From positions 1,530 through 65,529 of the forward strand of contig CAZISE010000020.1 of NCBI GenBank assembly GCA_964541945.1: a DNA stretch of 64,000 bases, written 5' to 3'. Below are positions 1,241-60,132 of the stretch, one piece after another. The position numbers and the translations under genes were made by a program. The notes beneath the pieces were generated by a model that searched no databases, was not told the origin of the DNA, and was given only the letters and a program-made list of their open reading frames with translations. Source of the DNA: an uncultured Verrucomicrobiota bacterium (GTDB lineage Bacteria; Verrucomicrobiota; Verrucomicrobiia; Palsa-1439). Position 1 is the stretch's first letter. Each line of letters starts with the position of its first letter.

Positions 1241-1492
1241 ACGCGCAACGATGTGCCTTTCATCCTGATGGCGTCAACGCAAATTTTGACAAGGTACGCA
1301 GGATTGCCCACCTCATCGTTGACATGATCTGGCAAAGTCCTGTCGTCTGCGCTCTGCGAAATCGGCAAAGCCGAATTCCCATTCGAAGGCTGTCAGGTCC
1401 AACTCCACAAACGATGATGAATCTCTACCCAGAACTTGTGTTCAACTCCCTGCCGGGGTAGTCTCCGTGCGAGGAAAGGACGAGGAAACCCC

Positions 1493-26288: not shown

Positions 26289-29033
26289 TTACCGACAGTC
26301 CCGGTTGCAGGCGAGCGACGGTTTTGCGCCGGGCATATCGTCGCGAGGACGCTCTTTGAGCATTGCGGTAATCGGCTCGAAGGTTTTCAGGATGGCCTGG
26401 TAGTCGGGATCGTCGGCACTGGCGAATACCGCTTGGCCGCAGGTCTCGGCGCCGCCGGCGGACCTGGCGAGCGGGGCGAGAAGAAAACGGTTTCGTTGCG
26501 GGTTGGTGATGCGGATCCAAACCTCGCGTGGGAATTGACCGTTCCGATGGCACCCGGCACAGCGGCGGGCCGCAACGTTGGCCAGCGTTTTATCGAGATC
26601 GGCAGGATAAACACGGCGGCAACCGCGCAGTTCGGGATACGCCGGCTCGGTGGCGCCGTAGTAGGGAACGTTGAGGTCTATCCACTGGAAAATACGGCGG
26701 CGGCTGGAGTCGTCCATTTCCACTTTGGAATGACCGGCGAGAATCATGTCGGCGAGTTTGCTGCGGGGGCTGCCCCAGGTTTTGGGGGTGACTTCGAGGA
26801 TGTTGGCTTCCATGCCGTTGTAGGTCGGAATCCAGTTTACATACGGGCTGTCGTATTCGCCTTCGCCGCCGCGTTTGCGACCGCGGGCGAGGTTTTCGTA
26901 GGAAACGTTGAAGTAGTCGGTCTTGTCGCCGGTCAGGTCAATGCGTTTGGGCGGGTTCGGACCGCTGTGGCAACGAATGCAATAACGGTCGAGCACGGGC
27001 TGGACAATGCTGGCATAGTCAAAGCCAACATCCTGTCCCCACTCCGGGGGACGCAATTCACGCGCGTTCGCGCGGAGTGCGTCGGGACGCGCGGGTTGCG
27101 CGAGACTGCTGCGATTCTCGTGGCAACCGATGCAGCCCTGGATTTCACCGGGCATGAGGTGGGTAAAGGTGCGCATGCGTTGAACGGCGCGGCCCTGGGC
27201 GTCGAGCGCCATGAAATAGATCGGCACGCCGGCGGGCACTTTGAAACAGGCGGAGCCGTCGGCCTCGACGGGCGCATAGCCCCAGACTTTTTTGGCGGCG
27301 TACGTGGCGCCGCAGGAGATGACGGGGAACTGGAAACCGAATGCGCGATGGTTGAGGTCAATGCGAACGGGTTTTTCCATTTCCTGTACAACGGCGATTT
27401 CGGCTACTTCGCCTTTGCGGACGTGCGGCTCAAGGCCGTTATAAACATTCTGAATGAAGACAGTGGCCCACCCGGTCTCGCTGGTCTTGTCCGGCAACGT
27501 GGTCGGAATCACCGGCGGAGACGGGCGCGGCACAAACGGTTGCGGGTTGTAGAACCCCATGCCGTCACGCGGCGTCAACACAATCGTTTCCTCCACGCCG
27601 GCGAAGTCGCGCAACAGGATCGTGCCGTTTTTGGAGACAAGGTACCGCTGGTTGTCGAGCGGATACGGCGTGGAGTACGGGCCGCGCACGTGGTTCCCGT
27701 TACCTTTGTCCACCTGGCCGATGTTGATTTCGGGCGTGAGATTCTGGATAGCGGCCTGAGCGTTCACGCCACGGGCGCGATCAATGATGCCGATGGCGCC
27801 ACGGGCGGGACCGTTGTGGGCGGTCAGCGTGCAAATGATCTTTGTGGTGCCGGGGATGGAGCGCGCTTCCATGAATGTTGCGGGACTGAGTGCCCGGTTG
27901 CCGTAGTAACCGGCAAGGCCGGTTCCGTCGGGGTTAATCGTCCACAGGCTCTGAATGGGGATGGCCGGTTTGTCCACGTATTCCCAACGCGAGTAGATGA
28001 GGCGACCGTCGTGGAGGACACTCGGCGTGAAATCATTGACGATGTTTGCGGAGAGCCGGCGCGGATTTTTACCATCGGCATCCATGCGGTAAAGCAGCCC
28101 GACGGGCGAAACCCAGCAGTAGGCAAACCGCGCCGAGCGGGTCGAGAGAAAGGCAATGCCGCCGTCGGGAAGCCAACAGGCATTGTAATCATGCCAGTAT
28201 CCCGCGGTGAGTTGGCGCAAGTCGGAACCGTCGGCGTTGACGGTAAAAAGGTGGTACCCTTCGTTCTCGGTTTTGCGCCAACTGAAAAGCACGGTCTTGC
28301 CGTCATAGGAGAGGTCGCAGTCCAGAATCTGCCCCTGGCCGGCGTCCACAAGCCGTCGCAGAGCGCCGGTGTTCGGCGTAAATACGAAGAGACCGCCGCC
28401 GGGACGGAAGCCTTCGGTGTGGTAGGTATAGACGTGCGAGGAATCAATCGGATGACGTTGGATGAGGAGCAACGGCCCGATGTCCACCCTGGCGGGCTTG
28501 CGTTTCGGAGCGTCGCCGGGCAATGAACCTTCGGGCGCAGGCGCGGCAAACACCATGATCTCCGATGCGCCGGGATTGAGGCCGCCGTGGGAACTGAGGA
28601 ACTTCAGTGTCATCCGTTTCACCGTGGCGGGGGCGGGCAGAGTAAGCCGTTGTGGCGCGCTGGTCATTTCGAGCCGACCGGTGAGCGCGGGTTTGTCAGC
28701 GTTGTCGAGATGAACGGCGTAGTCTTTCCAACATTCGGTATCCATCCAGGCAGTCCGTCCGTAATAGACAATTTGCGCAACCGTAACCGGCTCCGGCCAT
28801 TCGAGGATAAACTCCGCGCCGTTACGATGAGTCTCGCCGCGGACACACCAGGCGGCATTCAGGTCGTTGTGACTGCCGGCGTCGGGAATCGTGCCGTCCA
28901 CGGCGAACCGGGCGCAGTAGGCCGCGCTGTATTCGGAGCTGGCTGTGGCTGTGGCTTTGCGCGCAAGGTTCTCCGGTGTCGCGCCGTAAACGGCGACGCT
29001 CATCAGGAACAGGCAAGGAATTGTGCGCGACAC
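26289..29033 (-). CDS. Secreted protein with an F5/8-type-C (discoidin) domain, a TolB-like beta-propeller and C-terminal planctomycete-type cytochrome c domains (three CxxCH haem motifs).
   Basis: Signal peptide MSRTIPCLFLMSVAVYG. CxxCH motifs at GCIGCHENRS, YCIRCHSGPN and RCAGCHRNGQ. PD40-like SYDGKTVLFSW and NADGSDLRQLT. Confidence 0.8.
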   Translation of the reverse strand: MSRTIPCLFLMSVAVYGATPENLARKATATASSEYSAAYCARFAVDGTIPDAGSHNDLNAAWCVRGETHRNGAEFILEWPEPVTVAQIVYYGRTAWMDTECWKDYAVHLDNADKPALTGRLEMTSAPQRLTLPAPATVKRMTLKFLSSHGGLNPGASEIMVFAAPAPEGSLPGDAPKRKPARVDIGPLLLIQRHPIDSSHVYTYHTEGFRPGGGLFVFTPNTGALRRLVDAGQGQILDCDLSYDGKTVLFSWRKTENEGYHLFTVNADGSDLRQLTAGYWHDYNACWLPDGGIAFLSTRSARFAYCWVSPVGLLYRMDADGKNPRRLSANIVNDFTPSVLHDGRLIYSRWEYVDKPAIPIQSLWTINPDGTGLAGYYGNRALSPATFMEARSIPGTTKIICTLTAHNGPARGAIGIIDRARGVNAQAAIQNLTPEINIGQVDKGNGNHVRGPYSTPYPLDNQRYLVSKNGTILLRDFAGVEETIVLTPRDGMGFYNPQPFVPRPSPPVIPTTLPDKTSETGWATVFIQNVYNGLEPHVRKGEVAEIAVVQEMEKPVRIDLNHRAFGFQFPVISCGATYAAKKVWGYAPVEADGSACFKVPAGVPIYFMALDAQGRAVQRMRTFTHLMPGEIQGCIGCHENRSSLAQPARPDALRANARELRPPEWGQDVGFDYASIVQPVLDRYCIRCHSGPNPPKRIDLTGDKTDYFNVSYENLARGRKRGGEGEYDSPYVNWIPTYNGMEANILEVTPKTWGSPRSKLADMILAGHSKVEMDDSSRRRIFQWIDLNVPYYGATEPAYPELRGCRRVYPADLDKTLANVAARRCAGCHRNGQFPREVWIRITNPQRNRFLLAPLARSAGGAETCGQAVFASADDPDYQAILKTFEPITAMLKERPRDDMPGAKPSLACNRDCR

Positions 29034-29034
29034 T

Positions 29035-29925
29035 CTATTTCTTGGGTGGCTTTGGGGCGCCTTTGGGGTCGAGGTTGGCTTTCAGGTCCTCGTCGGTCAC
29101 AGTGGACTCGACTCCGTTGGCGGGGACCTCGACTTTGGCGACCCAAACCAACGCATTCAGGATGATTTTGCGCATGTTTTCATTGCCCCAGCCGGTGTGA
29201 TTGTGGCCGCCGGTGAAACCGAAGCCGCGACCGCCGTTGGGACGCTCGAACGCCCAAGCGACGATCTGCGGTTTTCCCTCGGCAACATCTTTGCGCACGG
29301 CGGGATTACCGCTGTGAGGGCCGTCGGGACGTTTCAAGGTGTCGGCAGGCGGGAGGTCAAAGAGGATGGGGGTAACGCCTTTCATGCCGTCGGCAAACCG
29401 CATGTGGTAATACCATTCATCGTTGATCGAGAATGGTTTCACTCCGCGAGTGATGGGGTGTTGGGGCAGTTCCTTGAAGTGGGCGGTCCAAAAGGGGTTG
29501 ACCGACCAGTGGGTCTCGAAACAGCCCCCAATCCACTGAATGAATTCTTTGTTGCCTTTTTCCGTGGTCGGTTCCACGGCATAGTGGATGAGAGCGAGAC
29601 CAACGCCTTTGTCCATCAGTTTGCCCAGTGTCTGGAGATTGTCGCCCTGCAACGCAGGGTGTCCGCCGCCGCCGTCACTGTAAATGGCGATTGCCGCGGC
29701 GCCGTCAAAAACGGAGGCGTCCTTCGGCCAGCCGTTGAGGCAGACGACCGCTTGCACAAGTCCGGACTGGTCGAGACATTTTTTGAAAAGCAGCATACCG
29801 GCATTGTGTTCGTGCGCACCGGGGCCGTGACTGGGACGACCGGCGATCAGGACAATTTTCGGGGGCGCGGCAAGACAGACAGTCGTTATCAGACTAACAA
29901 TGGCGATGGTAACGGGTGTTTTCAT
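29035..29925 (-). CDS. ThuA-like (trehalose-utilisation A / class-I glutamine amidotransferase-like) secreted protein.
   Basis: ThuA-like blocks AHEHNAGMLLFKKCL ... IAIYSDGGGGHP ... FTGGHNHTGW. The ATG at 29925 (MKTPVTIAIVSLITTVCLAAP) has a perfect SD aaggagatgacc upstream. The track start at 29949 is probably too far upstream. Confidence 0.8.
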   Translation of the reverse strand: MKTPVTIAIVSLITTVCLAAPPKIVLIAGRPSHGPGAHEHNAGMLLFKKCLDQSGLVQAVVCLNGWPKDASVFDGAAAIAIYSDGGGGHPALQGDNLQTLGKLMDKGVGLALIHYAVEPTTEKGNKEFIQWIGGCFETHWSVNPFWTAHFKELPQHPITRGVKPFSINDEWYYHMRFADGMKGVTPILFDLPPADTLKRPDGPHSGNPAVRKDVAEGKPQIVAWAFERPNGGRGFGFTGGHNHTGWGNENMRKIILNALVWVAKVEVPANGVESTVTDEDLKANLDPKGAPKPPKK

Positions 29926-29939
29926 GGTCATCTCCTTGA

Positions 29940-30830
29940 TCATGCCCACGCTTCGGCGAGCTGTTGGCGCAGGACTTTGGCCGCCTGCACGGCTTCCTCG
30001 TCAAACTGTTTCCCCCAGCCGCCCTCAATGGAAATGCGGTCGGCGTACCCGATGCTCTTCAGCGCCTTGAAATAGGGGCGAAAATCGGTTTCCTCCTTGC
30101 CGGGCGCTTTCCGTCCCGGCATCGTGGCGACATGCACATGGCGAATGCGTTTGCCCGCTTTGAGAATGGATTCGGGGCCTTCAGCGTCCTTCATCATGTG
30201 ATAAATGTCGGCATGCAACTGAACCCCCGGATGTCCAATGGCATCCACCAGTTCCGCCCCCTCGTCCACGCGGGTGAGGAAGTTACACTCTTTCTTGTTG
30301 AGCGGCTCCAACACAATGATAACCCCGTTGTCGTGCGCAACCGGAGCGATTTTCTTGCAAAACGCGATGAATTGTTCGCGCGCTTGCTCGGGAGAAAACC
30401 CTTCCGGAATCCGACGCGCGCCGCCGCTGCCAAGGACAATTCGCGCCACACCCACCTTTGGCGCGCGCCGAATCGCTGCCGTCGCGTACACAACCGCTTC
30501 ATCCGTCCGCGCGCCCGGTCCGACAAGTTTCAGTTCGGCGGGGATGAACCCGTTGCAGGCGCGCACGGGCAAGTCGGCCGCTTTGATCTCCGCCAGCCGT
30601 TTCTCAAACACCTCCTCGCCCTCTTTCGGCACCAACACCTGCGCCACGCCACCCTCGACAAACTGGAATCCGGCCTTTTTCATGGCCGCCGCCTTCTGAT
30701 AGGAGGTACAGATGCCCAATTCCAAATCGGGCCCTGTACCGGCCAGCGCAACGGGCAGATACTTGTGAATGGCCAGTGTGGAAGCCACCGTCGAGGCGGT
30801 CACAAGAAAACGGCGTCGAGAGATCATCAT
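29940..30830 (-). CDS. Tat-exported sugar-phosphate isomerase/epimerase (xylose-isomerase-like TIM barrel).
   Basis: Twin-arginine signal MMISRRRFLVTASTVAS. ...VLEPLNKKECNFL...HADIYHMMKDAE...RIRHVHVA is typical of the AP_endonuc_2/xylose isomerase-like fold. Confidence 0.8.
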   Translation of the reverse strand: MMISRRRFLVTASTVASTLAIHKYLPVALAGTGPDLELGICTSYQKAAAMKKAGFQFVEGGVAQVLVPKEGEEVFEKRLAEIKAADLPVRACNGFIPAELKLVGPGARTDEAVVYATAAIRRAPKVGVARIVLGSGGARRIPEGFSPEQAREQFIAFCKKIAPVAHDNGVIIVLEPLNKKECNFLTRVDEGAELVDAIGHPGVQLHADIYHMMKDAEGPESILKAGKRIRHVHVATMPGRKAPGKEETDFRPYFKALKSIGYADRISIEGGWGKQFDEEAVQAAKVLRQQLAEAWA

Positions 30831-31088: not shown

Positions 31089-31845
31089 TCAACCACTGCT
31101 GGCCACTACCCCCAATTGTCGCCACTTCGGCAACAGCTCCGCCAACAACCCTCGCCACCACGTCACCCAGCCCGCCGGCACGTACAGACTCGTCTTGATC
31201 TGCCGCGCATGCCATCCCATTTCCACCGGTGTCAACAGCAGATGCTGAATCAGCATGCGCACACGCTTCGGCACTTCGCTCTCCGGCAAGTACAACAGCT
31301 TCAACGCTTGCAACACATCGTAGGCCAACGTCGCCAACGCATGGAAACATTGATTCGTCGTCAACCGCTGACACGGTGGATGATGCAGTTGGAAGTCGCT
31401 CGGCCGCTGTTCCAAATCCCCCTTGAGCCGATGCCGCTCAAACGCCCGTTGCACTTCGCCTGCCCGATCGTCGCAGGTCACAAACTCCCGCCTGCTCCGG
31501 CGCAGCGCATCCCGACCGGCCATCACCGATGGCCCGCAATCATTCGCCCAACGCGCTCTGATCGGGAATCTTCTCCACACCCAACAACCTCTTCAACGAC
31601 TCATCCTCATCGAGCCGTTCCCCGTCGGCAATGGCGACACCGCCGCTGGTGAAGGCAAACAAAAAGGCGGCCACATACACTTTGGTATCGAAGCCTTTGG
31701 AACGATCCGTGCGCGGGTCTAGTGACGGGGTTTCTCGCACGCGCTTCCAGAGACCGAACTGGGTCAACAGCGCAGCGACGATGTTGTCCTTCCCGAGGTC
31801 TTCCTTGGCTGTGCCAAGATCCATTGCTGAACTTGACGGACACAA
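31089..31845 (-). mobile_element. Remnant of a DDE transposase gene (IS4/IS1380-like). It is N-terminally truncated and internally frameshifted (two overlapping ORFs, 31540..31845 and 31089..31580).
   Basis: The two minus-strand ORFs join into one protein: ...LKRLLGVEKIPDQSALGE | WANDCGPSVMAGRDALRR...TNQCFHALATLAYDVLQALK. The tail (N-x(8)-LAYN/D...K) is the conserved C-terminal transposase motif. Upstream the expected N-terminus is replaced by the promoter of the next gene. Confidence 0.45.
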
Positions 31846-31935
31846 CTATCGTGTAACCATCTGCTGGGCAGTGCGTATATTACGATAGAAGCATAAAATA
31901 AATTAGCTTACACCCCAAGGGAGGGAAAACCTATC

Positions 31936-33885
31936 ATGAACAGGTGCATGCTGACGATGTTGTTGCTGTCCGTCGCCACGAGCCTGCAACCCGTTACCGC
32001 TGCCGAGCAATCCAAATCCACAACAGGAGGCGGACCTCTAGCGGGCGCGTTGTCATACGAGTGCGATGACGCCTGCTTGCTTCCGGGAGCACCGGTTCCT
32101 CCAGGGAAATATGCCGTAGTGTCGCCGGTGGGCAAACAAACCGTTCAAATGATCAAACAGGCACCTCGCTTGGATACTCTACACGGAAAGACGATCGCGG
32201 TCGTGGGCGGAAGTTTCATGGCCAACATCACGCATCCCGAGATTAAGAGGCTGATCCTAGCGAACTACCCGACTGCCAAGGTGCTTTTGCTGGACGAAAT
32301 AGGTTCGGGCGGTCCGTTTCCTGGTCCCGGTGTTAGAAGGCAGGCCAGTGAGGAGTTTCAGAAAAATCTCAAAAAGATGGGCGTGCACGCGGTGATATCA
32401 GGGAATGGCGGGTGCGGACTGTGCACGCCGAAGGAAACGGGATCGAGCATCGCGGCTGAATACGTGGGTATTCCCGCCGTAACCATCGCAGCACCGGCTT
32501 TTGTGAAGCAGGTGTATTCCATATCGGTCAACAACGGCGTGCCCGCGCCGCGAGCCGCCACCTACCCCGGCGCATTTGCGGCTCATACACGAGATGAGCT
32601 GATTCAAAACACCAGAAACGTCCTCTGGCCCCAGATCGTTGAGGCATTGACGAAACCTATCACCGAGACGGAAATCGCCGAACGCCGCAAAGCAGGAGTC
32701 GAAGACCCCAAGGAACGTGTGTTCGTGGGCACCGTTGACGGGGTAAACAGGTTTTTCATAGAGCAGCATTGGGCTGACGGGTTGCCGATCATTCCACCCA
32801 CGGTAGAACGGGTGGAGGAGTTTTTGAAATATACCGACCAGCCTTGGGATGAGGTTGTCGCCGTGCTTCCCATCGCCTATCGGAAGGTCTTGGTCTGGCA
32901 CGTTGCGGTCAATGGCGTGATGGCGGGATGTCCGCCGGAGTTCATGCCGCTGTTGATCGCCTATACCAAAGCTCTGGCTGATGGCGATTATCGGCGCACG
33001 TTGTCCAGCACCCATGCATGGACACCCTTCTGCTGGGTGAACGGACCGGTTGCCAGACAACTGGGCATTGACTTTCAACAGGGGCTTATTAATGAGCCAC
33101 GAAATGCCGTTCTTGGCCGGTTTATTAATTTGGCCATGTTGAATCTGGGTGGTTACTACATCAAACAGGACCGGATGGGGACCTTTGGTTATCTCATGCC
33201 GTGGTGCTTGGCGGAAGATGAACAAGCTTGTCTCAAGATTGGCTGGCAGCCCTACCACGTGCAGCAAGGGTTTAAACTGAACCAGAGCACTTTGACCGCT
33301 GCTTCCGCCCTGTTGTGGGGCAATAATCTCACCCCGGCAACGTCCAACCCCGAGAAGATCATGCAGGTTATGGCTTGGGATGCAGTGGAGAAAAGCCAGT
33401 TTGCTACAGGTAGCGGTCCGCGGCTCACGCCCCGGACCATTCTGATTACCGAGTACATCGCCCGCGACCTTGCCCGTGGTTATCCCACGAAGGAAAAGCT
33501 GGAACAGGCCTTGATCGCAACGGCGCGAAGACCTGCGTATGAACGAGCCTTTGCCAACTATTGGGCGAACCCCGGTAGTGCGTTTAACCCTGCCAGATAC
33601 ACGTTGGAGCAACACCTCAACAAAATCATAAAAGACGAGAATGCAATGCTGACAGCCCCACCTCCGTGGTTCCCCAAAGTTCAAGGGCTGGAAAAAATAT
33701 ATACTGTTCCCGTGATGAAGCCCGGCACGACAGCGATTCTGGTCACCGGGGACGCGGACAGAAACAAGGTGCAAACCATACCCGGCGGCAATCACGTCAC
33801 GATAGAAATCAAATTACCCGCCAACTGGGATGCCCTGATGGCAAAGCTCGGTTATCGTCCATTGAAAGAGTTCTTCCTCCAATAA
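31936..33885 (+). CDS. Secreted hypothetical protein (649 aa) with an N-terminal UGSC-like redox motif (GNGGCGLCT); compositionally atypical and probably horizontally acquired.
   Basis: Strong RBS agggagggaaaa and AT-rich promoter region. Signal peptide MNRCMLTMLLLSVATSLQPVTAAEQ. Lower GC by eye and rare codons (AGA/AGG/ATA/CTA/TTA) relative to flanking genes. Sits next to the IS remnant. Confidence 0.7.
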   Translation: MNRCMLTMLLLSVATSLQPVTAAEQSKSTTGGGPLAGALSYECDDACLLPGAPVPPGKYAVVSPVGKQTVQMIKQAPRLDTLHGKTIAVVGGSFMANITHPEIKRLILANYPTAKVLLLDEIGSGGPFPGPGVRRQASEEFQKNLKKMGVHAVISGNGGCGLCTPKETGSSIAAEYVGIPAVTIAAPAFVKQVYSISVNNGVPAPRAATYPGAFAAHTRDELIQNTRNVLWPQIVEALTKPITETEIAERRKAGVEDPKERVFVGTVDGVNRFFIEQHWADGLPIIPPTVERVEEFLKYTDQPWDEVVAVLPIAYRKVLVWHVAVNGVMAGCPPEFMPLLIAYTKALADGDYRRTLSSTHAWTPFCWVNGPVARQLGIDFQQGLINEPRNAVLGRFINLAMLNLGGYYIKQDRMGTFGYLMPWCLAEDEQACLKIGWQPYHVQQGFKLNQSTLTAASALLWGNNLTPATSNPEKIMQVMAWDAVEKSQFATGSGPRLTPRTILITEYIARDLARGYPTKEKLEQALIATARRPAYERAFANYWANPGSAFNPARYTLEQHLNKIIKDENAMLTAPPPWFPKVQGLEKIYTVPVMKPGTTAILVTGDADRNKVQTIPGGNHVTIEIKLPANWDALMAKLGYRPLKEFFLQ

Positions 33886-34344
33886 TGGCAAAGGCGAAAG
33901 CAGGCGCACAACAGTTTGGACGGGCGCGGCGGCTTTAATGCCGTGGGGGCGGGGGTAAGCGACGCGTTTTTTGCGTAAGAAGTAGCGATCGGTTTTCATG
34001 CAATACAGCTCGAAGTAGTGGAGTTGCATGAAGAAAAAGATTTACCTGAAGCGGGTCGTAGCTGGCCAGATTGGGGTGAGTGGCAGTAGGATGTGTTTGC
34101 CTGCCGCCCTCTCCCCCCAGGGCGCTAGGGAGGCGCTTCTTGGGAGAAGGGACGGAGAGTAGCTTGTAGCTCTCTCATGTGCAGGGGACTCATCACCTTC
34201 AACTTCACCCCCCAAGTGGGGCACGATCTCCCCACCGGTTCCCAAGGCGTTGCAATTCGCCGCTTGACGCTGGCGGTTGCAAGGGGTAAAAGGAGCGCAA
34301 CTTATGGCGTCAAGGAGGACGCGTTGGGGAGACTGACAATTTAG

Positions 34345-35376
34345 ATGTTTGGCAAGTTTCTAAACTATTTTTCCACCGACATCGGGATCGATTTAGGCAC
34401 CGCGAACACCCTCGTTTATGCGCGGGATCGCGGTATTGTTTTGCGAGAGCCAAGCGTGGTCGCCATTCAGACCGGCACCAGCCACGTCCTGGCGGTGGGA
34501 GAAGAGGCGAAGCGGATGTTGGGCCGAACGCCAGGCAACATCACCGCCATCCGCCCCATGAAAGACGGCGTTATTGCCGATTTCGAGATCACCGAAGCGA
34601 TGCTGCGCTACTTCATCAGCAAGGTTCATTCCGGCCGTTACGGGGTGAAACCGCGCGTGGTGGTGGCTGTCCCCAGTGGCATCACCGAAGTCGAGAAACG
34701 CGCCGTCAAAGACAGTGCGGAACATGCCGGGGCCAGACACCCGGTATATCTCATTGAAGAACCGATGGCGGCTGCCATCGGCGTTGGGCTGCCGGTGCAA
34801 GAGCCGGCAGGCAACATGATTGTGGATATTGGCGGCGGCACGACCGAAGTGGCCATCATCAGCCTGGCGGGGATTGTGCTCAGCCGCAGCGTGCGTGTAG
34901 CAGGAGACGAACTGGATGAAGCGATTATCCAGTACATGAAACGCGCTTACAACCTGGACATTGGGCCGCGCATGGCGGAGGACATCAAGATCAACGTCGG
35001 CTCGGCGTACCCCTTGGAACACGAATTGACCATGGAAGTCAAAGGCCGTGACCTGGTGGCCGGCCTGCCGAAAACCTTGACTGTCACCTCCGAGGAAATC
35101 CGCGAGGCGTTGCAGGAACCGATCTCGACCATCATCGAGAGTATCCGCATGACGCTGGAGCGATGTCCCGCCGAATTGTCCGCCGACCTCGTGGATCGCG
35201 GTATCGTGCTGGCAGGCGGCGGTGCGCTCATCCGCGGCATTGACAAGCTTTTGTCCGAAGAAACCGGCCTCCCCGTTCATGTGGCTGACGACCCACTCAG
35301 CGCCGTCGCCATGGGCACGGGGGTTGTTCTTCAAGAACTTGGTTTCCTTGAGAAACTGGCGCGCAATTCCTCCTAG
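34345..35376 (+). CDS. mreB: Rod shape-determining protein MreB (actin homolog).
   Basis: [41 protein letters not shown]...[16 protein letters not shown] is a canonical MreB sequence. Confidence 0.95.
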
Positions 35377-35439
35377 GCCCGATTTGCCACTCCTGCCCCA
35401 CACTCGCGTTGTTGAGGCCGCCACGGCGGCATAAATTAG

Positions 35440-36219
35440 TTGAAGCGAGAAAATTTGGTCATTATTGGGCTGTTTGTGTTGGCATGGGCATTGTTGCTCG
35501 GTCAGCCGACGCGGGTGGGCGCCCGGCTGCGAACCTTGTTTGTGCAGCTTGGGACCCCCTTCGAGCGTCTTGGCGACCTGATTCCCGTCCTTCGCACCCA
35601 CGCCGCTCTCTCACGCCACAACGATCGACTTCGTGCCGAAAACAACGATCTCCGCCGCCAAATCACCGAACTGCAACATCAACGTGCCGAGAACCAACAG
35701 CTCCGCGCCCTGCTCCAAATCAAACAGGCCGCTCCCTGGCGCACCGTCGGCGCCCGGGTCATTGGCCGTGACGCCTCCAACTGGTGGAAAAGCATCCAGA
35801 TTGACCGTGGCAGCGACGATGGCGTCCGCCCCGACCTGCCCGTGCTCAGCGCCAGCGGGTTGGTCGGCAAAACTGTTTCCGTTACCGCTGGCGAAAGCCG
35901 CGTCCTGCTGCTGCTCGACGCTTCCTGCAAAATCGGCGCGCTTCTGGAAACCAGCCGCGACCCCGGGATTGTCAGTGGTGCTCATGCCGCCTTCTCCCGT
36001 GAACCGCGATTGGAAATGACCTTTGTGGACCGCAAGGTCTCCGTGAAAGTCGGCGAAGGCGTGTACACCTCCGGGCTGGGCGGCATTTTCCCCCGCGGCA
36101 TCCTCATCGGCACCGTCACAGGCGCCGATCTCGATCCGCAGGGCTTGTATCAAAGCGTCGAACTCAAACCCGCCGCCGACTTTCATCGGCTGGAGGAAGT
36201 GATGGTGATTATCCCATGA
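35440..36219 (+). CDS. mreC: Rod shape-determining protein MreC (TTG start proposed).
   Basis: N-terminal TM helix, coiled-coil HNDRLRAENNDLRRQITELQHQRAENQQLRALL and a beta-rich C-terminus. Position immediately after mreB. Confidence 0.8.
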   Translation: MKRENLVIIGLFVLAWALLLGQPTRVGARLRTLFVQLGTPFERLGDLIPVLRTHAALSRHNDRLRAENNDLRRQITELQHQRAENQQLRALLQIKQAAPWRTVGARVIGRDASNWWKSIQIDRGSDDGVRPDLPVLSASGLVGKTVSVTAGESRVLLLLDASCKIGALLETSRDPGIVSGAHAAFSREPRLEMTFVDRKVSVKVGEGVYTSGLGGIFPRGILIGTVTGADLDPQGLYQSVELKPAADFHRLEEVMVIIP

Positions 36220-36686
36220 ACTTCCTCCTCATGGCCATCTTCACCCTGTCGCTGACCGCGCTCCAGGCGCGGTTGCCGACGGCCTGGTGGCTGGGCGGTG
36301 TCCGTTTCGAGTTTTTGCCTGCACTGGTGGCTTTCGGGGCGCTAACGTTCCGTCACCGCCGCTGGGCTGTCACGTTGGCGGTTACGGCCGGTTTTTTGCA
36401 GGACGCTCTTTCGGCGGCGCCATTCGGCAACACTATGGCGGCCTACGCGTTGGCGGCGTTCCTGTTGACGGGCATGGCGCGGGCGTTCGACCGCGAGGCG
36501 CTCTGGATGCAAATGCTGGGCGGCGCGTTGGTCAGTCTGGTGGCGTCGCTGGCCGCCTGTGCTGTCGTCGGGTTTGGCGGCGGCGCGGCATGGAAGATAT
36601 CGCTACTGGCCGTTCTCAGCGCGGCTGTGACACCGGTGGTGTTTTTTGTGTTGGATTTTTTGCGTTGGAGGCTGCGGGTGACATGA
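36216..36686 (+). CDS. mreD: Rod shape-determining protein MreD (polytopic membrane protein).
   Basis: Five predicted TM helices, 4-bp overlap with mreC and 4-bp overlap (ATGA) with mrdA. Confidence 0.7.
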   Translation: MNFLLMAIFTLSLTALQARLPTAWWLGGVRFEFLPALVAFGALTFRHRRWAVTLAVTAGFLQDALSAAPFGNTMAAYALAAFLLTGMARAFDREALWMQMLGGALVSLVASLAACAVVGFGGGAAWKISLLAVLSAAVTPVVFFVLDFLRWRLRVT

Positions 36687-38557
36687 TTTTGACGGCTCCA
36701 TTTCGGGACAACAATCCGCGGCTTCACGTTGTTGGCGCTCTTGTTGGTGTCGGGTTGCTGATCTTGTTGCTGGCGTTGTTCCGCGTGCAGGTGCTGCACG
36801 CCGAGATGTACGGCAGCCGCGAACAATCCCAGTCGCTCCGACGCATTCGTATTCCGTCAGCCCGCGGTGACATTGTGGACCGCCACGGCGTGGTACTGGC
36901 GGAAAATCGGCCGCGTTACGATGCTGTTATCTATCTCGACCAGCTCCGCGGCTCAAAACGACAGGATATTTACCGGGTCATTCATTCACATCTGGCGCTG
37001 CTGGCGCAAACGATGAATCTGCCGGTGACGTTGACGGAACAGGAAATTCGCGCCCATTACCTGAAACGGCGTCCGTTGCCGCTGGTGGTCTGGCGCGATC
37101 TTTCGCCGTCGCTGGCGGCGCAATTTGCGGAGCGAGCGGGTCATTTGCCCGCGGTGGACCTGGTGGCGACGCCGGTGCGCCATTACCCGCACGGCTCACT
37201 GGCGGCGCATGTGCTCGGTTTTTCCGGACAGGCCGAGCAACCGGACGACGAGGAGGCCGACGAGTTTTACTATTACCAAGCCGACACCGCGGGCAAACAG
37301 GGTGTCGAAAAGGTCTGCGACGAATATCTGCGCGGCGCGCCCGGTGGACGCACCATCCGGGTCAATCCCAGCGGCCAGACCGTTGCCGAAACCGGGTACA
37401 AACCGGCCGAACGCGGTGACCGCGTGGTGCTGACGTTGGACGCCCGGATCCAAAGAATTGTCGAACAGGCGCTGGACCGCGCACCCTTGCCGGCGGGGGC
37501 GGAACTACGGGCCGCCGCGGTGGTGCTCGACCCGCGCACCGGCGAGGTTCTGGCCATGGCGAGCCGTCCGACGTTTGACCCGAATCTGTTCACACCCGGC
37601 GCGCCGGCGGAACAACTTTCATGGGTGTTGCGCAATCCGGCCAGCCCGCTGTTGAACCGGGCCATCGGCGCCCGGTACGCGCCCGGTTCGATCTTCAAGC
37701 CGGTGACCTTGTTGGCCGGGCTGCAACACGGCGCGGTCACCTCGGCCGACAGCGTTCTCTGTGAAGGATCATTGCACATCGGCAATCGTTCGTTCGGCTG
37801 TTGGAACCGGCGCGGCCACGGACGAGTGGATGCCGCCACGGCGTTGCGGCTTTCGTGCGACGTGTGGTTTTACCAGAAAGGGCTTGCTATCAAGGCCGAA
37901 ACCATCGCGAAAGAAGCCGGTGAATTCGGCCTCGGCCAGCTCTGCGGCCTGGACCTCGATGGCGAAAAACCCGGCCTGGTTCCGACCCCGGCCTGGAAAC
38001 GATTGACGCTCGGTGAACGCTGGTGGGATGGTGACACGGCACAGTTGTCCATTGGACAGAGTTTTCTGCTGGTCACTCCGCTTCAAATGGCCTGTCTGAC
38101 CGCCGCGCTGGCCAACGGCGGGACCGTGTGGCGACCCTTTGTGGTCCAGCGCGTGGTAACCGCCGAAAACCTCATCGTGAGCGAAACCAAGCCGGAAGCG
38201 CGTCGCCGCATCTCCGCGTCGCCGTCCGACATCGAATTTGTGCGGCAGGCCATGTTGTCGGTGGTGCAGGCAACTGACGGGACCGGACGCGCCGCCGCCG
38301 TCCGGGGCATCCGGGTCGCCGGCAAAACCGGCACCGCCGAGGCCGACCTGCGGGTTCACGGCGCGACGCAACGGGTAAAACGAACCTGGTTCATCGCCTT
38401 CGCGCCATACGAATCGCCCGAAGTGGCGCTGGCTGTCCTGTTTGAGGAAGGCGCCAGCGGCGGGCACACCGCGGCGCCGGTGGCCGGACAGATTCTGGCC
38501 GGGATTTTCGGCAGGACGGTGGAGCGAGTGGGACAGGAGGGGCTTCATGCCGACTAA
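36683..38557 (+). CDS. mrdA: Penicillin-binding protein 2 (peptidoglycan D,D-transpeptidase MrdA).
   Basis: MILTAPFRDNNPRLHVV...RGDIVDRHGVVLAEN (PBP dimerisation domain). Transpeptidase motifs SIFKP (SxxK), SCDV and KTGTA. Confidence 0.9.
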   Translation: MILTAPFRDNNPRLHVVGALVGVGLLILLLALFRVQVLHAEMYGSREQSQSLRRIRIPSARGDIVDRHGVVLAENRPRYDAVIYLDQLRGSKRQDIYRVIHSHLALLAQTMNLPVTLTEQEIRAHYLKRRPLPLVVWRDLSPSLAAQFAERAGHLPAVDLVATPVRHYPHGSLAAHVLGFSGQAEQPDDEEADEFYYYQADTAGKQGVEKVCDEYLRGAPGGRTIRVNPSGQTVAETGYKPAERGDRVVLTLDARIQRIVEQALDRAPLPAGAELRAAAVVLDPRTGEVLAMASRPTFDPNLFTPGAPAEQLSWVLRNPASPLLNRAIGARYAPGSIFKPVTLLAGLQHGAVTSADSVLCEGSLHIGNRSFGCWNRRGHGRVDAATALRLSCDVWFYQKGLAIKAETIAKEAGEFGLGQLCGLDLDGEKPGLVPTPAWKRLTLGERWWDGDTAQLSIGQSFLLVTPLQMACLTAALANGGTVWRPFVVQRVVTAENLIVSETKPEARRRISASPSDIEFVRQAMLSVVQATDGTGRAAAVRGIRVAGKTGTAEADLRVHGATQRVKRTWFIAFAPYESPEVALAVLFEEGASGGHTAAPVAGQILAGIFGRTVERVGQEGLHAD

Positions 38558-39662
38558 CGCGCCCATAACGGTTTTCAAACGCATGGATTGGCTGCTGTTT
38601 GCGGTAATGATCGCGCTGGTAGTTGTCGGCGTTTGTTTTATCTACAGCGCGTCCTATCGCGGGCCGGGACAACCGATGCCGTCGTTTTGGCGGATGCAGT
38701 TGGTGTGGTTCGGCGTCGGGCTGGGATTGTATCTGGTGGTGATGGCGGTGGATTACCGCTTGATCTGTCAGTGGGCAACGCTGTGGTATGCGCTGGCCAT
38801 TTTGCTGCTGCTGCTCGTGCTGGTCGTTGGCGTGAAGGTGTACGGCGCGCGGCGGTGGCTGGGGGTGGGACGGCTCGGCATTCAGCCGGCGGAACTGGCG
38901 AAGCTGGCGCTGATCATCGGCCTGGCCTACTACCTGTTTCATCGGACACCCGAACAGCGGCGGCGCGCTTCGACGGTGTGGAGCGGGTTGCTGTTGATGG
39001 CGATGCCGTTTGTGTTGATTTTGGTCGAGCCGGATCTCGGTTCGGCCATGACGTTGATCCCGATCACATTCGGGATGTTGTTTGTGGCCGGTGCGCGGGG
39101 TAAACACCTTGTGCTGGCCGCGTTGTTGGGTTTGTGCCTGACGCCCGTGGCGTGGTGGCACATGAAGAAATACCAGCGCCAGCGGTTGACGGTGTTTTTG
39201 AATCCGGACCGTGACCCGCTCGGCGCGGGATGGAACTTGAACCAGTCCTTGATCGCCGTCGGAAGCGGCGGCGTAACAGGGAAAGGATTTCTGCAGGGAA
39301 CGCAGAACTCGCTGGGGTATTTGCCGCGCACGGTGGCGCCGAACGATTTTCTGTTCAGCGTGATTGCTGAGGAGAAAGGGTTTGTCGGCAGCGCCGGCGT
39401 GGTGGGGTTGTATGCCCTGCTGTTGTGGCGCGGGCTGTGGATTGCAGCCCATGCGCGCGACCGTCTCGGCATGTTGTTGGCGACGGGCATCGTGGCCATG
39501 TTGTTTTTCCATGTGTTCGTCAACATCGGCATGACCATCGGACTGATGCCGGTAACGGGAGTGCCCTTGCCGCTGCTCAGCTATGGCGGTTCGTTCGTGC
39601 TGGTCACCATGACGGCACTGGGATTGTTGCAAAACATATGGATTCACAGGAGAAACTACTGA
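38547..39662 (+). CDS. rodA: Rod shape-determining protein RodA (SEDS-family peptidoglycan glycosyltransferase).
   Basis: MPTNAPITVFKRMDWLLFAVMIALVVVGVCFIYSASY...NPDRDPLGAGWNLNQSLIAVGSGGVTGKGF. RBS ggacaggagggg. Confidence 0.9.
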   Translation: MPTNAPITVFKRMDWLLFAVMIALVVVGVCFIYSASYRGPGQPMPSFWRMQLVWFGVGLGLYLVVMAVDYRLICQWATLWYALAILLLLLVLVVGVKVYGARRWLGVGRLGIQPAELAKLALIIGLAYYLFHRTPEQRRRASTVWSGLLLMAMPFVLILVEPDLGSAMTLIPITFGMLFVAGARGKHLVLAALLGLCLTPVAWWHMKKYQRQRLTVFLNPDRDPLGAGWNLNQSLIAVGSGGVTGKGFLQGTQNSLGYLPRTVAPNDFLFSVIAEEKGFVGSAGVVGLYALLLWRGLWIAAHARDRLGMLLATGIVAMLFFHVFVNIGMTIGLMPVTGVPLPLLSYGGSFVLVTMTALGLLQNIWIHRRNY

Positions 39663-39663
39663 C

Positions 39664-41265
39664 ATGGAAGTCATCAAGAAACTGATCCAAAAAAGCGAAG
39701 AATTGTTGCTGGGCCGACGAAAACTCACCCACAAGGAAATCATCGTCAACGCCGAAGCGCTGGAAAACCGCGTGGCGTTGCTGGAACACGGCCAACTGGA
39801 GGAATTCAGCATCGAACGCACCACCGAGAAACGTATTGTGGCCAGCATCTTCAAGGGCAAAATCAAAAACCTTGAACCCGGCCTGAAAGCCGCTTTCGTG
39901 GACATCGGCTTCGAGAAAAACGCCTTCCTGCATTACTGGGACATCATCCCGGAGTCGCTGGCCGAGCGCGTGGACCTGGTGGAAACACCCGGCGAACAAA
40001 AAACGCCCCAGAAAAAAATCAGCCAAAACGACATTCCCAAACTCTATCCGCCCGGCTCCGAAGTCATCGTTCAGGTCGTCAAAGGCCCCATCGGCACCAA
40101 AGGCCCCCGCATCACCACCAACATCAGCATCCCCGGCCGCTACCTCGTGCTGATGCCATTCGACCCCTCTCGCGGCATCTCCCGCAAGATTGAAGATGAA
40201 AAAGAGCGTCAACGCCTCAAAAGCATCGTTCGCGACCTGAAACTACCCGAAGGGATGGGCGTCATTGTCCGCACCGTCGGCGAAGGACAAAAGAAACGCT
40301 ACTTCATCCGCGACCTTGAACTGCTCCTCCAAACTTGGAAACAGGTCGAGGAAAAAATCAAAAAAGAACCGGCCCCGTGCTGCGTTTTCCAGGAACCCGA
40401 CCTCATCGAGCGCACCGTTCGCGATTTCCTCACCGAGGAAATTGACCGTATCGTCGTGGACAACGAGGACGCCTATGAACGCATCCGCAACATGATCGGA
40501 CAAATCAGCCGCCGCTCCCGCGGCAAGGTCCGCCTCTACACCGAGCCGACGCCGATCTTCACCAAGTTCAACGTCGAACGACAGATCGAAAACGCCTTCC
40601 GACGCCAGGTCTGGCTCAAAAGCGGCGGCTACATCTGCATTGATGAAACCGAAGCGCTGGTGGCCATTGACGTCAATACTGGCCGCCACAAGAGCCAGAA
40701 AGACCTCGATACCACCATCCTTCAGACCAACCTGGAGGCCGCCGAGGAAATCTGCCGCCAGTTGCGCCTGCGCAACATCGGCGGCCTCATCGTCGTGGAC
40801 TTCATTGACATGCGCCACCGCCGCGACCAGCAACAGGTCCTCCAAAAAATGCGCGAGGGCGTCAAACGCGACAAGGCCAAAACCCGCATCCTGCCCATCT
40901 CACAACTCGGCCTGCTCGAAATGACCCGCCAACGCCATAGCGAAAGCATGGCCAGCGCCGTCTATGAAGACTGCCCCTACTGCAAGGGCAAAGGCATGGT
41001 CAAGAGCGCCCTCTCGATGTCCGTCGAAATCCAGCGTAAAATCAGCGAGGTCCTGCGACGGCTCCGCGAAAAAGGGCACCACGAGCAACCGCACATCCGC
41101 ATCTTCGTTCATCCCGAAGTCCTCAATCGCCTCCGCACCGAGGATGAGGCGCTGCTCATCGAACTGGAAAAGAAACTCAACGGCAAACTCAGCTTCCGCG
41201 CCGATCCTTCCTTCCACTTCGAACAATTCAAGATCACCGATGCCGTAACCGGTCAGGAATTGTAA
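39664..41265 (+). CDS. rng: Ribonuclease G/E family endoribonuclease (Rng/CafA-like).
   Basis: S1 domain IVASIFKGKIKNLEPGLKAAFVDIGFEKNAFLH, catalytic domain ...ALVAIDVNTGRH... and the Zn-link CPYCKGKG. Located after rodA as in many mre clusters. Confidence 0.85.
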   Translation: MEVIKKLIQKSEELLLGRRKLTHKEIIVNAEALENRVALLEHGQLEEFSIERTTEKRIVASIFKGKIKNLEPGLKAAFVDIGFEKNAFLHYWDIIPESLAERVDLVETPGEQKTPQKKISQNDIPKLYPPGSEVIVQVVKGPIGTKGPRITTNISIPGRYLVLMPFDPSRGISRKIEDEKERQRLKSIVRDLKLPEGMGVIVRTVGEGQKKRYFIRDLELLLQTWKQVEEKIKKEPAPCCVFQEPDLIERTVRDFLTEEIDRIVVDNEDAYERIRNMIGQISRRSRGKVRLYTEPTPIFTKFNVERQIENAFRRQVWLKSGGYICIDETEALVAIDVNTGRHKSQKDLDTTILQTNLEAAEEICRQLRLRNIGGLIVVDFIDMRHRRDQQQVLQKMREGVKRDKAKTRILPISQLGLLEMTRQRHSESMASAVYEDCPYCKGKGMVKSALSMSVEIQRKISEVLRRLREKGHHEQPHIRIFVHPEVLNRLRTEDEALLIELEKKLNGKLSFRADPSFHFEQFKITDAVTGQEL

Positions 41266-58677: not shown

Positions 58678-60009
58678 TCACGATCGTCTGTCTCTCTTGT
58701 GTTTCCTGTTGGGAGGTTCTTTGGAGGCGTTGGATGGCGACCAGGCGGGGTCTTGTGGATTTGCCACGGTCAACGCGCACGAGTCGCCGTACTCTTGTTG
58801 CGCCTTCTCCAGAAGCGCCATCATCTCTCTGATTTTGTCGGCATATTCCTCTTTTCCTGAAAGGTCGTTGCTCTCGTATGGATCGGTCTGAAGATCGAAG
58901 AGCTGGGTCTTGTGGATGCGCGGGTAACGAATCAGTTTCCAGCGCTCATCCCGGACCGCTCGTTGAACATCCTTGTAGGCGGTCAAGGCATGGTCGCGCA
59001 CCTTGACTGTCTTGCCCGTGATAATCGGGGCGAGACTTTTGGCGTCAAGTCCTGCCGGCACGGGTATCCCAGTCAACTCACAAAGGGTCGGATAAATGTC
59101 CATGAGATACGCCAGGGCAACAGTCTCGCCCTTCGGAATTCCGGGACCGGCAAAAACAAGCGGGACATGCATTCCGCCGAACTCATAGAGGTTTTGTTTG
59201 CCAAGCAGGCCGTGTTCACCCAGTGAAAGACCGTTGTCCCCGGCTACCACGATGATGGTGTTGTCGAATTGCCCGACTTGTTTCAGAGCATCGAGAATAC
59301 GGCCCACCTGGTCATCGAGATACGTAATCGAGGCGTAATAACGAGCGAGTTTTCCAGTAACGCTTTCCCGTGTGCGTGGCCACGGAAGGGTTTTCTCATC
59401 GCGAACGGTCATTTCGCCATTGTTGAACGGGTGAAACGGCAGGAAATTCCGCGGCAACGGGATATCGGCGGCTTGGTACATTGGATAATAACGGTCGGGC
59501 GCGTATTGCGGGTCGTGCGGTTCCTGCGGCGCATAATAGAGAAAAAGCGGTTTCTGACCGGCCTGTCGCTGGAGGAAGGCAATGATGTGGTCGGCGTTGC
59601 CCTCGGCGGTCCTGCCATCCAGATGCTGATCGAAATCGGCGTCCAGCGCATTTGGGGTGTTACTGAACTTACCACTGCGAATGGAAGCGTATCCGGCGGC
59701 TTTGATTGTCCGAGCCAGCGTCGGTGTGTTGTCGCGTTTACGGAAGTAACTGATACCGGTCTGAATCATGGTGCGACTCGGCAGACAGACCGCGCCGACG
59801 TTTGATCCAAGCGTGTACGCATTGCGAAAGACGAAACCGTTTTCGACAACACGGTCAAGATGGGGCGTCTTGACTACCGTGTTGCCGAGCGCGCGCAATC
59901 CGTCCGGACGCAAATCATCCGCGAGAATGAACAGCACATTGGGCTTGGAAACGGCCATGACCGGTGCCGCGGAAAACAGCAACGCAACAAGAAGGATTCC
60001 TTTATTCAT
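58678..60009 (-). CDS. Sulfatase (formylglycine-dependent).
   Basis: [31 protein letters not shown] ... AVCLPSRTMIQTG. Confidence 0.9.
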   Translation of the reverse strand: MNKGILLVALLFSAAPVMAVSKPNVLFILADDLRPDGLRALGNTVVKTPHLDRVVENGFVFRNAYTLGSNVGAVCLPSRTMIQTGISYFRKRDNTPTLARTIKAAGYASIRSGKFSNTPNALDADFDQHLDGRTAEGNADHIIAFLQRQAGQKPLFLYYAPQEPHDPQYAPDRYYPMYQAADIPLPRNFLPFHPFNNGEMTVRDEKTLPWPRTRESVTGKLARYYASITYLDDQVGRILDALKQVGQFDNTIIVVAGDNGLSLGEHGLLGKQNLYEFGGMHVPLVFAGPGIPKGETVALAYLMDIYPTLCELTGIPVPAGLDAKSLAPIITGKTVKVRDHALTAYKDVQRAVRDERWKLIRYPRIHKTQLFDLQTDPYESNDLSGKEEYADKIREMMALLEKAQQEYGDSCALTVANPQDPAWSPSNASKEPPNRKHKRDRRS

Positions 60010-60132
60010 GCGACATCGTTTTGACCGTGAGCGAGCCACATTATTCGACGCTTCCCGTTGCTCGGTCAACCTTTTTGCCGACGAAGACAGATTTGCGCTT
60101 GTCTGCGCGAAAAGAATTGTTATTTTGGTACC

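Follow-up and report, generated by a model that had tools for sequence, protein, structure and literature searches.

This report concerns a gene on the plus strand of a 64-kb stretch of bacterial DNA, called the window here and analyzed as a whole. The open reading frame (ORF) at 31936–33885 has 649 codons and encodes a 649-amino-acid protein, and its description as the gene for an exported, cysteine-type UGSC-module protein draws on the ORF, its homologs and an AlphaFold2 (AF2) model. We view this protein as an exported cysteine form within a family in which cysteine and selenocysteine replace each other. Its UGSC domain is inserted into a module of about 420 amino acids, it would work as a thiol oxidoreductase, and its gene would have been transferred in the past among bacteria of the Planctomycetota–Verrucomicrobiota–Chlamydiota (PVC) group and relocated afterwards; in this reading as a whole we have somewhat better than even confidence. 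Ever since the Global Ocean Sampling survey (PMC2398784) UGSC proteins have been counted with the most abundant selenoproteins of aquatic habitats, and the family was still functionally uncharacterised in a 2026 review (PMC13188914). The window gene, being a cysteine form that can be expressed without selenocysteine machinery and being physically joined to a probable partner module, offers a handle on UGSC. The interest therefore lies less in the locus than in the family, with its nested architecture, its predicted flavodoxin-like fold, its division of selenocysteine and cysteine forms between compartments and an abundant module that has neither annotation nor structure.

The first-pass annotation of the window had recognized a UGSC-like redox motif in the protein, and profile searches bear this out. 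Pfam family PF24696 matched residues 61–239 (positions 32116–32652) over profile positions 2–171 of 172, scoring 55.2 bits against a gathering cut-off of 25 (E 1.2e-14), and the domain was also delimited by the model and by Foldseek. The NCBIfam equivalog NF041046 for the stand-alone UGSC protein reached 35.6 bits, below its cut-off of 125, and was matched only over profile positions 51–147. Outside UGSC the sole other family signals for this region were two weak matches centred on the CGLC sequence, to PrdB (TIGR04483, 18.6 against a cut-off of 300, E 1e-3, across the selenocysteine site) and to GrdB (TIGR01917, 12.3 against 602). Judged by these scores the window protein is a member of the UGSC family at the domain level and is neither the stand-alone equivalog nor a PrdB or GrdB. 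With the described UGSC family (PF24696, NF041046; Zhang and Gladyshev, PMC2398784) it has in common the U/C-G-x-C-T-P motif (U, selenocysteine) at the same position and the coexistence of selenocysteine and cysteine forms; it differs in that NF041046 describes a stand-alone protein of about 147 amino acids, whereas the window protein is exported, carries the motif as CGLC and has the domain nested in the larger module.

The motif GNGGCGLCT occupies residues 156–164. Its redox-active part, C160-G-L-C163, lies at 32413–32424, with Cys160 encoded by TGC at 32413–32415 and Cys163 by TGC at 32422–32424; the motif is invariant in the clade, Cys163 included. Each of the 29 close genomic homologs whose sequence spans the motif region has CGLC (29/29), and more divergent full-length relatives have CGGC, CGSC, CGTC or CGAC in its place. 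The family is large: clustering at 90% identity gave 2708 homolog clusters, the top 120 of which share 73% identity or more with the window protein and are without exception named hypothetical. At 50% identity there were 3597 representatives with E ≤1e-3 and 303 with E ≤1e-30, counts that take in proteins matching the UGSC domain alone or the module alone.

Many of the 50% representatives are 450–470 amino acids long, and their alignment begins at about query residue 170, directly past the motif. We took 80 metagenome loci of this subgroup and read them in frame upstream. The Cys160 column is an in-frame TGA in 45 of the 80 divergent loci and TGC or TGT in 18. The TGA stands in the context G-x-G-x-U-G-[S/T/A/V]-C-T-P and is preceded by more than 100 open codons encoding the first half of the UGSC domain. 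In the TGA forms a stable hairpin (for example GCCCGC-CGUGUU-GCGGGC) lies 11–31 nucleotides past the UGA, starting at 11–13 nucleotides; other TGA subgroups have different sequences and a stem at the same place. A bacterial selenocysteine insertion sequence (SECIS) is expected at such a position and of such a shape. The mean minimum free energy of the hairpin region was −23.6 kcal/mol in the TGA forms against −15.7 kcal/mol in the cysteine forms (Mann–Whitney p = 4e-12), and the cysteine forms as a group have no SECIS-like hairpin. A TGA in the same column of 45 related loci, followed by SECIS-like hairpins, demonstrates that Cys160 is the selenocysteine position of the family, and the earlier remark that cysteine stands in place of selenocysteine is thereby confirmed. 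The window gene itself is not a selenoprotein gene, codon 160 being TGC.

The two forms differ in their predicted location. In the window protein, residues 1–22 (MNRCMLTMLLLSVATSLQPVTA/AE; 31936–32001) read as a signal peptide with the usual n-, h- and c-regions, and in the model they form a helix (residues 2–15) followed by a disordered linker. A 12-residue hydrophobic-window score of at least 1.95, the threshold for the group, was reached by 48 of 49 cysteine-form relatives. The window protein is thus predicted to be exported by a Sec-type signal peptide, that is, one of the general secretory pathway, in agreement with the first reading of it as secreted. We rebuilt full-length proteins from 91 loci and sorted them by the same hydrophobicity score, which gave 48 exported cysteine forms, 40 cytoplasmic selenocysteine forms, 2 exported selenocysteine forms and 1 cytoplasmic cysteine form. 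By this prediction the selenocysteine forms are mostly cytoplasmic and the cysteine forms exported. In the exported cysteine forms the signal peptide is followed by a conserved pair of cysteines (ECDDAC in the window protein, CPDGVC or CDETC elsewhere); the pair is confined to exported forms and missing from the cytoplasmic ones. In the window protein it is formed by Cys43 and Cys47, which are at least 90% conserved within the exported clade.

Two selenocysteine forms which are 73–76% identical to the window protein (L071, selenocysteine codon at L071:1860, and L077, at L077:5968) had been placed by the score in the cytoplasmic selenocysteine class. They carry a twin-arginine signal with a lipobox (TRRDFLAAGAM...LSAC), a pattern that escaped the hydrophobicity score, and apparently are lipoprotein selenoproteins exported by the twin-arginine translocation (Tat) pathway within the clade of the window protein. 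In this they resemble the known Tat-exported selenoenzymes, periplasmic formate dehydrogenase and [NiFeSe] hydrogenase; these are unrelated in sequence and cofactors, and the window protein differs from them further in its Sec-type signal and its cysteine. A further selenocysteine form (L081, 529–2880, selenocysteine codon at 1408), 63% identical, combines a signal peptide with a rhodanese domain at the N-terminus (PF00581, E 1.3e-15), in whose active-site loop a cysteine is still present, a single case hinting at sulfur chemistry. Other family members carry EF-hands. The split between cytoplasmic selenocysteine and exported cysteine forms, together with the rare Tat-exported selenocysteine forms, can serve as a natural experiment on the conditions under which cells bear the cost of selenium. 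As a separate observation, at locus L054 a tandem paralog with the full architecture (399–2123, plus strand) directly precedes a selenocysteine form; its motif reads ISGGSTTLMTP, with neither cysteine nor selenocysteine, and it could be a non-redox partner subunit.

Outside the UGSC domain the protein is uncharacterised, as had been supposed. Pfam searches at E values up to 10 with residues 240–649 and with three UGSC-less relatives gave no match, searches of the PDB with the window protein sequence and with a profile of 62 sequences returned nothing below E 0.27, and the module had no Foldseek match. Homology searches of both halves therefore identify the UGSC domain and leave residues 240–649 without a Pfam or PDB relative. 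A diverse alignment of 62 sequences, 26–84% identical to the window protein, shows how conserved the main body of the module is (residues 256–649, 32701–33882). T289, A324, C332, G370, L376, R395, E427 and G445 are invariant in it, and W279, D281, G282, P287, P288, N326, E335, N390, N403 and E429 nearly so. Cys332 (32929–32931; motif NGVMAGC-PPE), at the N-terminus of helix 334–347 in the model, is the sole cysteine conserved family-wide outside the redox motif.

Relatives without a UGSC domain exist, and most of those examined start with a signal peptide, a cysteine motif and F-x-V-V-S-P. We deleted residues 68–255 of the window protein in silico; for 7 of 11 UGSC-less proteins the alignment to the rest then ran unbroken from residue 42 as far as the C-terminus (E 1e-106 or better). 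From the contiguous alignment of this chimera we infer that the UGSC core (about residues 68–255) is nested within the larger module of about 420 amino acids, having been either inserted there or excised from it in the UGSC-less relatives. The first description, an N-terminal UGSC domain fused to a large uncharacterised C-terminal domain, has to be amended in its topology, for the core is preceded by a segment of the module, residues 42–67 (32059–32136), which conservation and alignment define and which holds the Cys43/Cys47 pair (ECDDAC) and the strand YAVVSP. At least 90% of the relatives that lack UGSC have retained Cys332, which argues that the module has a chemistry of its own. A fusion named "UGSC/Unknown_1", which may or may not involve the present module, was already on record in 2008 (PMC2398784). 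One protein of 527 amino acids (P0142) has the module first, with a UGSC-like segment starting at the C-terminus, a permuted or tandem arrangement. Self-processing at Gly331-Cys332, of the N-terminal-nucleophile (Ntn) hydrolase or pyruvoyl type, was considered and set aside, Cys332 being placed between two helices in the model and not at the start of a strand.

The UGSC-less module also occurs in giant surface proteins of uncultured bacteria (P0148, P0151 and P0152 among them), and it is here that another function for the module has to be weighed, namely that it is a carbohydrate-active or cell-surface enzyme which the UGSC insert merely regulates as a redox switch. Several UGSC-less relatives are 900–2400 amino acids long, with the module at the N-terminus, and contain CBM26, pullulanase X25, dockerin, Listeria-Bacteroides repeats, CotH or Cu-amine-oxidase-N1; the gene of a 93% identical relative is flanked by genes for a sulfatase and glycosyltransferases, and PVC bacteria are polysaccharide specialists. 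However, glycoside hydrolases do not usually have an invariant cysteine where a helix begins, the module gave no CAZy-type Pfam signal, the neighbourhoods do not consistently contain carbohydrate genes, and many family members are cytoplasmic selenoproteins. We regard this explanation as improbable.

A first structural model computed from close homologs alone was poor (predicted local distance difference test, pLDDT, 62.5) and was replaced by one from the diverse alignment, which reached a pLDDT of 91.6 and a predicted template-modelling score (pTM) of 0.89. It indicates a tightly packed two-part protein. The UGSC domain is modelled as five consecutive beta-alpha units (strand/helix residues 86–90/96–110, 115–118/136–147, 152–158/163–176, 181–185/187–199 and 207–209/219–239), and CGLC at 160–163 comes after strand 152–158 and opens helix 163–176, so that the CxxC sits at the N-terminus of a helix. 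A thioredoxin-like fold had been guessed for UGSC in the literature and was proposed for checking around the CGLC motif. The placement of the CxxC would fit such a fold, but the five beta-alpha units differ from its beta-alpha-beta-alpha-beta-beta-alpha topology, and the 50 top Foldseek matches comprise CheY/REC, PurE and NQO1 proteins and no thioredoxin-fold protein. In the model, then, the fold of the UGSC domain is flavodoxin-like and not thioredoxin-like, which would correct the assumption made for UGSC so far.

The interchange of selenocysteine and cysteine in a U/CxxC motif, the invariant second cysteine and the tight packing against a module with its own invariant cysteine point to a thiol/selenol oxidoreductase. 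The genes near family members are heterogeneous, but a few thioredoxin reductase-like or pyridine-nucleotide disulfide oxidoreductases are encoded beside cytoplasmic forms, and we count these and the rhodanese fusion of L081 in favour of this reading. Our best guess is a thiol oxidoreductase that is self-contained and acts outside the cytoplasm. In it the site formed by Cys332, E427, R395 and T289 of the module would act on the substrate, and the C160/C163 pair would alternate between the dithiol and the disulfide state and so reset or feed the Cys332 site. The resetting role is modelled on the thioredoxin-like domains of Trx-MsrA/B or Prx-Grx fusions. Neisseria PilB (Trx-MsrA-MsrB) and the Prx-Grx hybrids join a thiol-disulfide domain to a Cys-dependent catalytic domain. 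By analogy, the window protein too would have a CxxC/UxxC domain covalently joined to a domain with a single essential cysteine, in the cell envelope and without an operon partner. There is no relationship to these proteins in sequence or fold, and the redox domain of the window protein is flavodoxin-like in the model and inserted rather than appended. A bolder version of the proposal takes the module for a new enzyme fold with Cys332 as the catalytic residue, defining a class of cysteine/selenocysteine oxidoreductases in which a PrdB-like insert serves as built-in redox partner, and the gene for one that has spread across PVC and gut phyla under very strong purifying selection; we put this forward tentatively, as falling clearly short of an even chance. 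If true, it would mean that an unrecognised class of cysteine- or selenocysteine-dependent oxidoreductases acts outside the cytoplasm and, in the selenocysteine form, also inside. The family equals MreB in its degree of conservation and has members in Akkermansia-like bacteria of the gut and in rumen bacteria.

The weak PrdB and GrdB matches lend themselves to a different mechanism, reductive cleavage. Here the module would bind and activate a small substrate, Cys160 would attack a C–N, C–S or C–O bond, and Cys163 would resolve the adduct, leaving a disulfide that needs re-reduction. PrdB and GrdB are after all the only non-UGSC relatives of the CGLC region, with local similarity at the selenocysteine site; the order UxxC is that of PrdB (PMC2398784), and the roles would correspond, with selenocysteine as nucleophile and cysteine resolving. 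Near the cytoplasmic selenocysteine forms lie genes for solute-binding proteins of transporters, for amidohydrolases and for hydantoinases, which suggests small-molecule catabolism. Yet the scores lie one to two orders below the cut-offs, the context is another one and the protein is exported, where an obvious electron donor for a reductase is missing. No family of the PrdA/GrdE pyruvoyl proprotein was found among 187 neighbour ORFs of 91 loci nor in the window, and the module gave no Gly_reductase signal in Pfam. Moreover, the module is kept in UGSC-less relatives, so that its chemistry cannot depend wholly on Cys160. We consider cleavage of this kind unlikely.

Binding of a metal would account for the same cysteines in another way. 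CGLC, Cys43/Cys47 and Cys332 would then be metal or cluster ligands, and the protein a metalloenzyme or an extracytoplasmic metal-handling protein. The CxxC of exported proteins often binds metals, selenocysteine is a metal ligand in some enzymes, the extra cysteine pair is specific to exported forms, and the Tat signals of L071 and L077 mark a route typical of proteins that are folded or cofactor-loaded before export. Against this stand the absence of the N-terminal pair in the cytoplasmic forms, the position of Cys332 as the sole family-wide cysteine outside the motif, and the lack of any grouping of His and Cys of the kind that marks Fe-S or Zn sites; families with UxxC are, furthermore, generally redox-active (PMC2398784, PMC13188914). 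Metal binding strikes us as a poor prospect beside the oxidoreductase that we favour.

A conserved operon partner was sought in 115 loci and none was found, the largest "cluster" being the UGSC half upstream of the TGA. Exported forms lie occasionally near extracytoplasmic function (ECF) sigma factors and Ser/Thr kinases, and ECF sigma-factor domains were seen in 5 of 103 neighbour ORFs. In five loci of the gut/rumen clade, from hosts assigned to different phyla (L007, L012, L014, L024, L028), a Ser/Thr-kinase-like protein of 330–714 amino acids is encoded within a few kb.

The origin of the gene was judged from homologs, synteny and composition, the first-pass annotation having called it foreign. 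The named relatives of the MreB encoded downstream, at 81–89% identity, all belong to Verrucomicrobia or Verrucomicrobiae, which places the host in the Verrucomicrobiota, and the nearest homologs of the target protein are also from Verrucomicrobia (84–86%). Identity remains high over large distances, with 82% to a copy from Phycisphaerales and 74–77% to proteins on long contigs labelled Bacillota. A neighbour-joining tree of the family, a distance tree without support values, separates environmental from gut/rumen clades, each of which mixes Planctomycetota and Verrucomicrobiota, and Thermoguttaceae as well as Verrucomicrobia occur on both sides. The family tree thus tracks habitat and not phylum, and for the family there is good support for transfer among PVC bacteria. 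Not one of 35 genome loci (0/35) contained any neighbour from the window, and the 91–93% identical relatives carry the gene alone, in other contexts.

Downstream, the gene is followed by mreB, mreC, mreD and the genes for PBP2 and RodA (profile matches MreB E 6.5e-150, MreC E 2.2e-45). Three genomes with an MreB of 89–92% identity (L116, L118, L120) keep the order mreB-mreC-mreD-PBP2-rodA-RNase E/G-AIRC (PurE-like) found at 34345–41000 of the window, and the target gene is absent from their 10 kb upstream of mreB. The region upstream of mreB differs in each of these genomes and in the window, which suggests that this side of mreB is a recurrent rearrangement point. In blastn comparisons homology to the three begins at window positions 34253–34342 and there is none to the left; we accordingly place the right boundary of the lineage-specific segment, where DNA homology to the relatives' region upstream of mreB begins, at 34253–34344.

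On the other side lies an insertion sequence (IS) remnant, so that the gene does have such a remnant on one side and the mre operon on the other, as first described. Two minus-strand fragments match the IS1380-family transposase profile NF033539, the one at 31540–31845 over positions 18–93 (E 3.6e-5) and the one at 31089–31580 over positions 309–415 of 419 (E 4.9e-11), and there is a weak Pfam DDE_Tnp_1_4 match. Together (31089–31845) they are one dead, internally deleted transposase, with profile positions of about 94–308 missing. The remnant adjoins the gene in divergent orientation, and mobilisation by an IS1380 element in the manner of ISEcp1 was rejected on the ground that the transposase is divergent from the gene and not upstream of it in the same orientation. 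Neither direct repeats at the flanks nor a tRNA nor a second copy of the IS was found; the scan for inverted and direct repeats gave only short, probably chance pairs. An Rfam search over the whole window gave no family at the gathering threshold.

The composition of the gene was compared within a set of 38 genes called in this one window with a self-trained codon model. Its GC content is 0.552 against 0.597 in the remaining window. At third codon positions its GC content (GC3) amounts to 0.635, the mean being 0.723 (standard deviation 0.037; z −2.4), and is the third lowest of the 38. The codons AGA, AGG, ATA, CTA and TTA, which had been named as rare in the flanking DNA, together make up 3.4% of its codons against 0.8% elsewhere (z +3.7), and its distance in synonymous codon usage is the largest of all (rank 38 of 38, z +2.4). 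The impression of unusual codons was therefore correct. Three points nevertheless temper the label "foreign": the gene is the most atypical of the 38, yet the deviation is moderate, and the gene at 58678–60234 comes close to it in GC3; in other hosts the GC content of the gene roughly tracks that of the host, with offsets of −0.05 to +0.08; and the mild GC3 deficit and the excess of rare codons recur in the copies of the 91–93% relatives within their own genomes.

These observations would also suit a native, vertically inherited gene, the odd codons reflecting gene-specific constraints and the position an ordinary rearrangement at an IS insertion site. Host and nearest homologs belong to one phylum, the identity of 91–93% to the nearest non-conspecific relatives is like the 92% of MreB, the relatives' copies have the same GC3 deficit, and the window shows neither direct repeats or a tRNA at the gene nor an Rfam match. 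This explanation carries real weight, and we still place it below an even chance: the identities of 82% and 74–77% across phyla are far above what vertical descent would lead one to expect, the tree groups by habitat with two lineages on both of its sides, the context differs in every close relative, and the enrichment of rare codons argues against an expression-driven bias. Our preferred account remains transfer, of an older date. Transfer within the PVC group probably brought the gene into this subclade of Verrucomicrobia some time ago, and later it moved next to mreB. For this copy the data fit an acquisition before the split from the closest known relatives and a subsequent move at a breakpoint marked by an IS; they do not fit a fresh arrival. 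The label "foreign" is weakened but not refuted: of the two findings that together were to refute it, nearest homologs in the phylum of the host were seen and synteny was not. The grouping by habitat also speaks for it, while the codon offset is modest and common to the relatives.

The translation start of the gene is conspicuous. A Shine–Dalgarno sequence GGGAGGG at 31919–31925, 10 nucleotides 5′ of the ATG, has a duplex energy of −11.8 kcal/mol, rank 1 of the 38 genes and followed at some distance by −8.5, and so is indeed the strongest of the window. It belongs to an AT-rich leader at 31877–31935, defined by AT content and this duplex energy: the 60 nucleotides from 31877 are 65% AT, joint highest in the window, and the 120 nucleotides 5′ of the gene are 57.5% AT, again joint highest among upstream regions, a place taken together with the divergent transposase fragment on the other side of the same intergenic DNA. 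Of the AT-rich promoter originally proposed the AT-rich part stands. A scan for sigma-70 consensus promoters and terminators gave no relevant match, so that "promoter" remains a guess. Neither the strong Shine–Dalgarno sequence nor the AT-rich leader is kept in the 91–93% relatives. The 5′ end of the transposase remnant lies within about 90 nucleotides of the start codon, and part of the leader could derive from an IS end.

On the opposite strand of the gene an ORF at 32398–33795 is a shadow ORF. Further upstream, on the minus strand, three genes form what looks like a typical "sugar/unknown" cluster of PVC bacteria (26289–30830), unrelated to the mre operon in the relatives. The first (26289–29033) encodes a protein of 914 amino acids with a hydrazine-synthase-alpha middle domain, DUF7402, an F5/8 type C domain and a weak cytochrome c signal; it is followed by genes for a ThuA-like protein (29035–29949) and a xylose-isomerase-like TIM barrel (29940–30830). 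Elsewhere in the window the minus-strand gene at 58678–60234, with a GC3 of 0.617 and atypical synonymous codon usage, could be a second compositionally odd gene.

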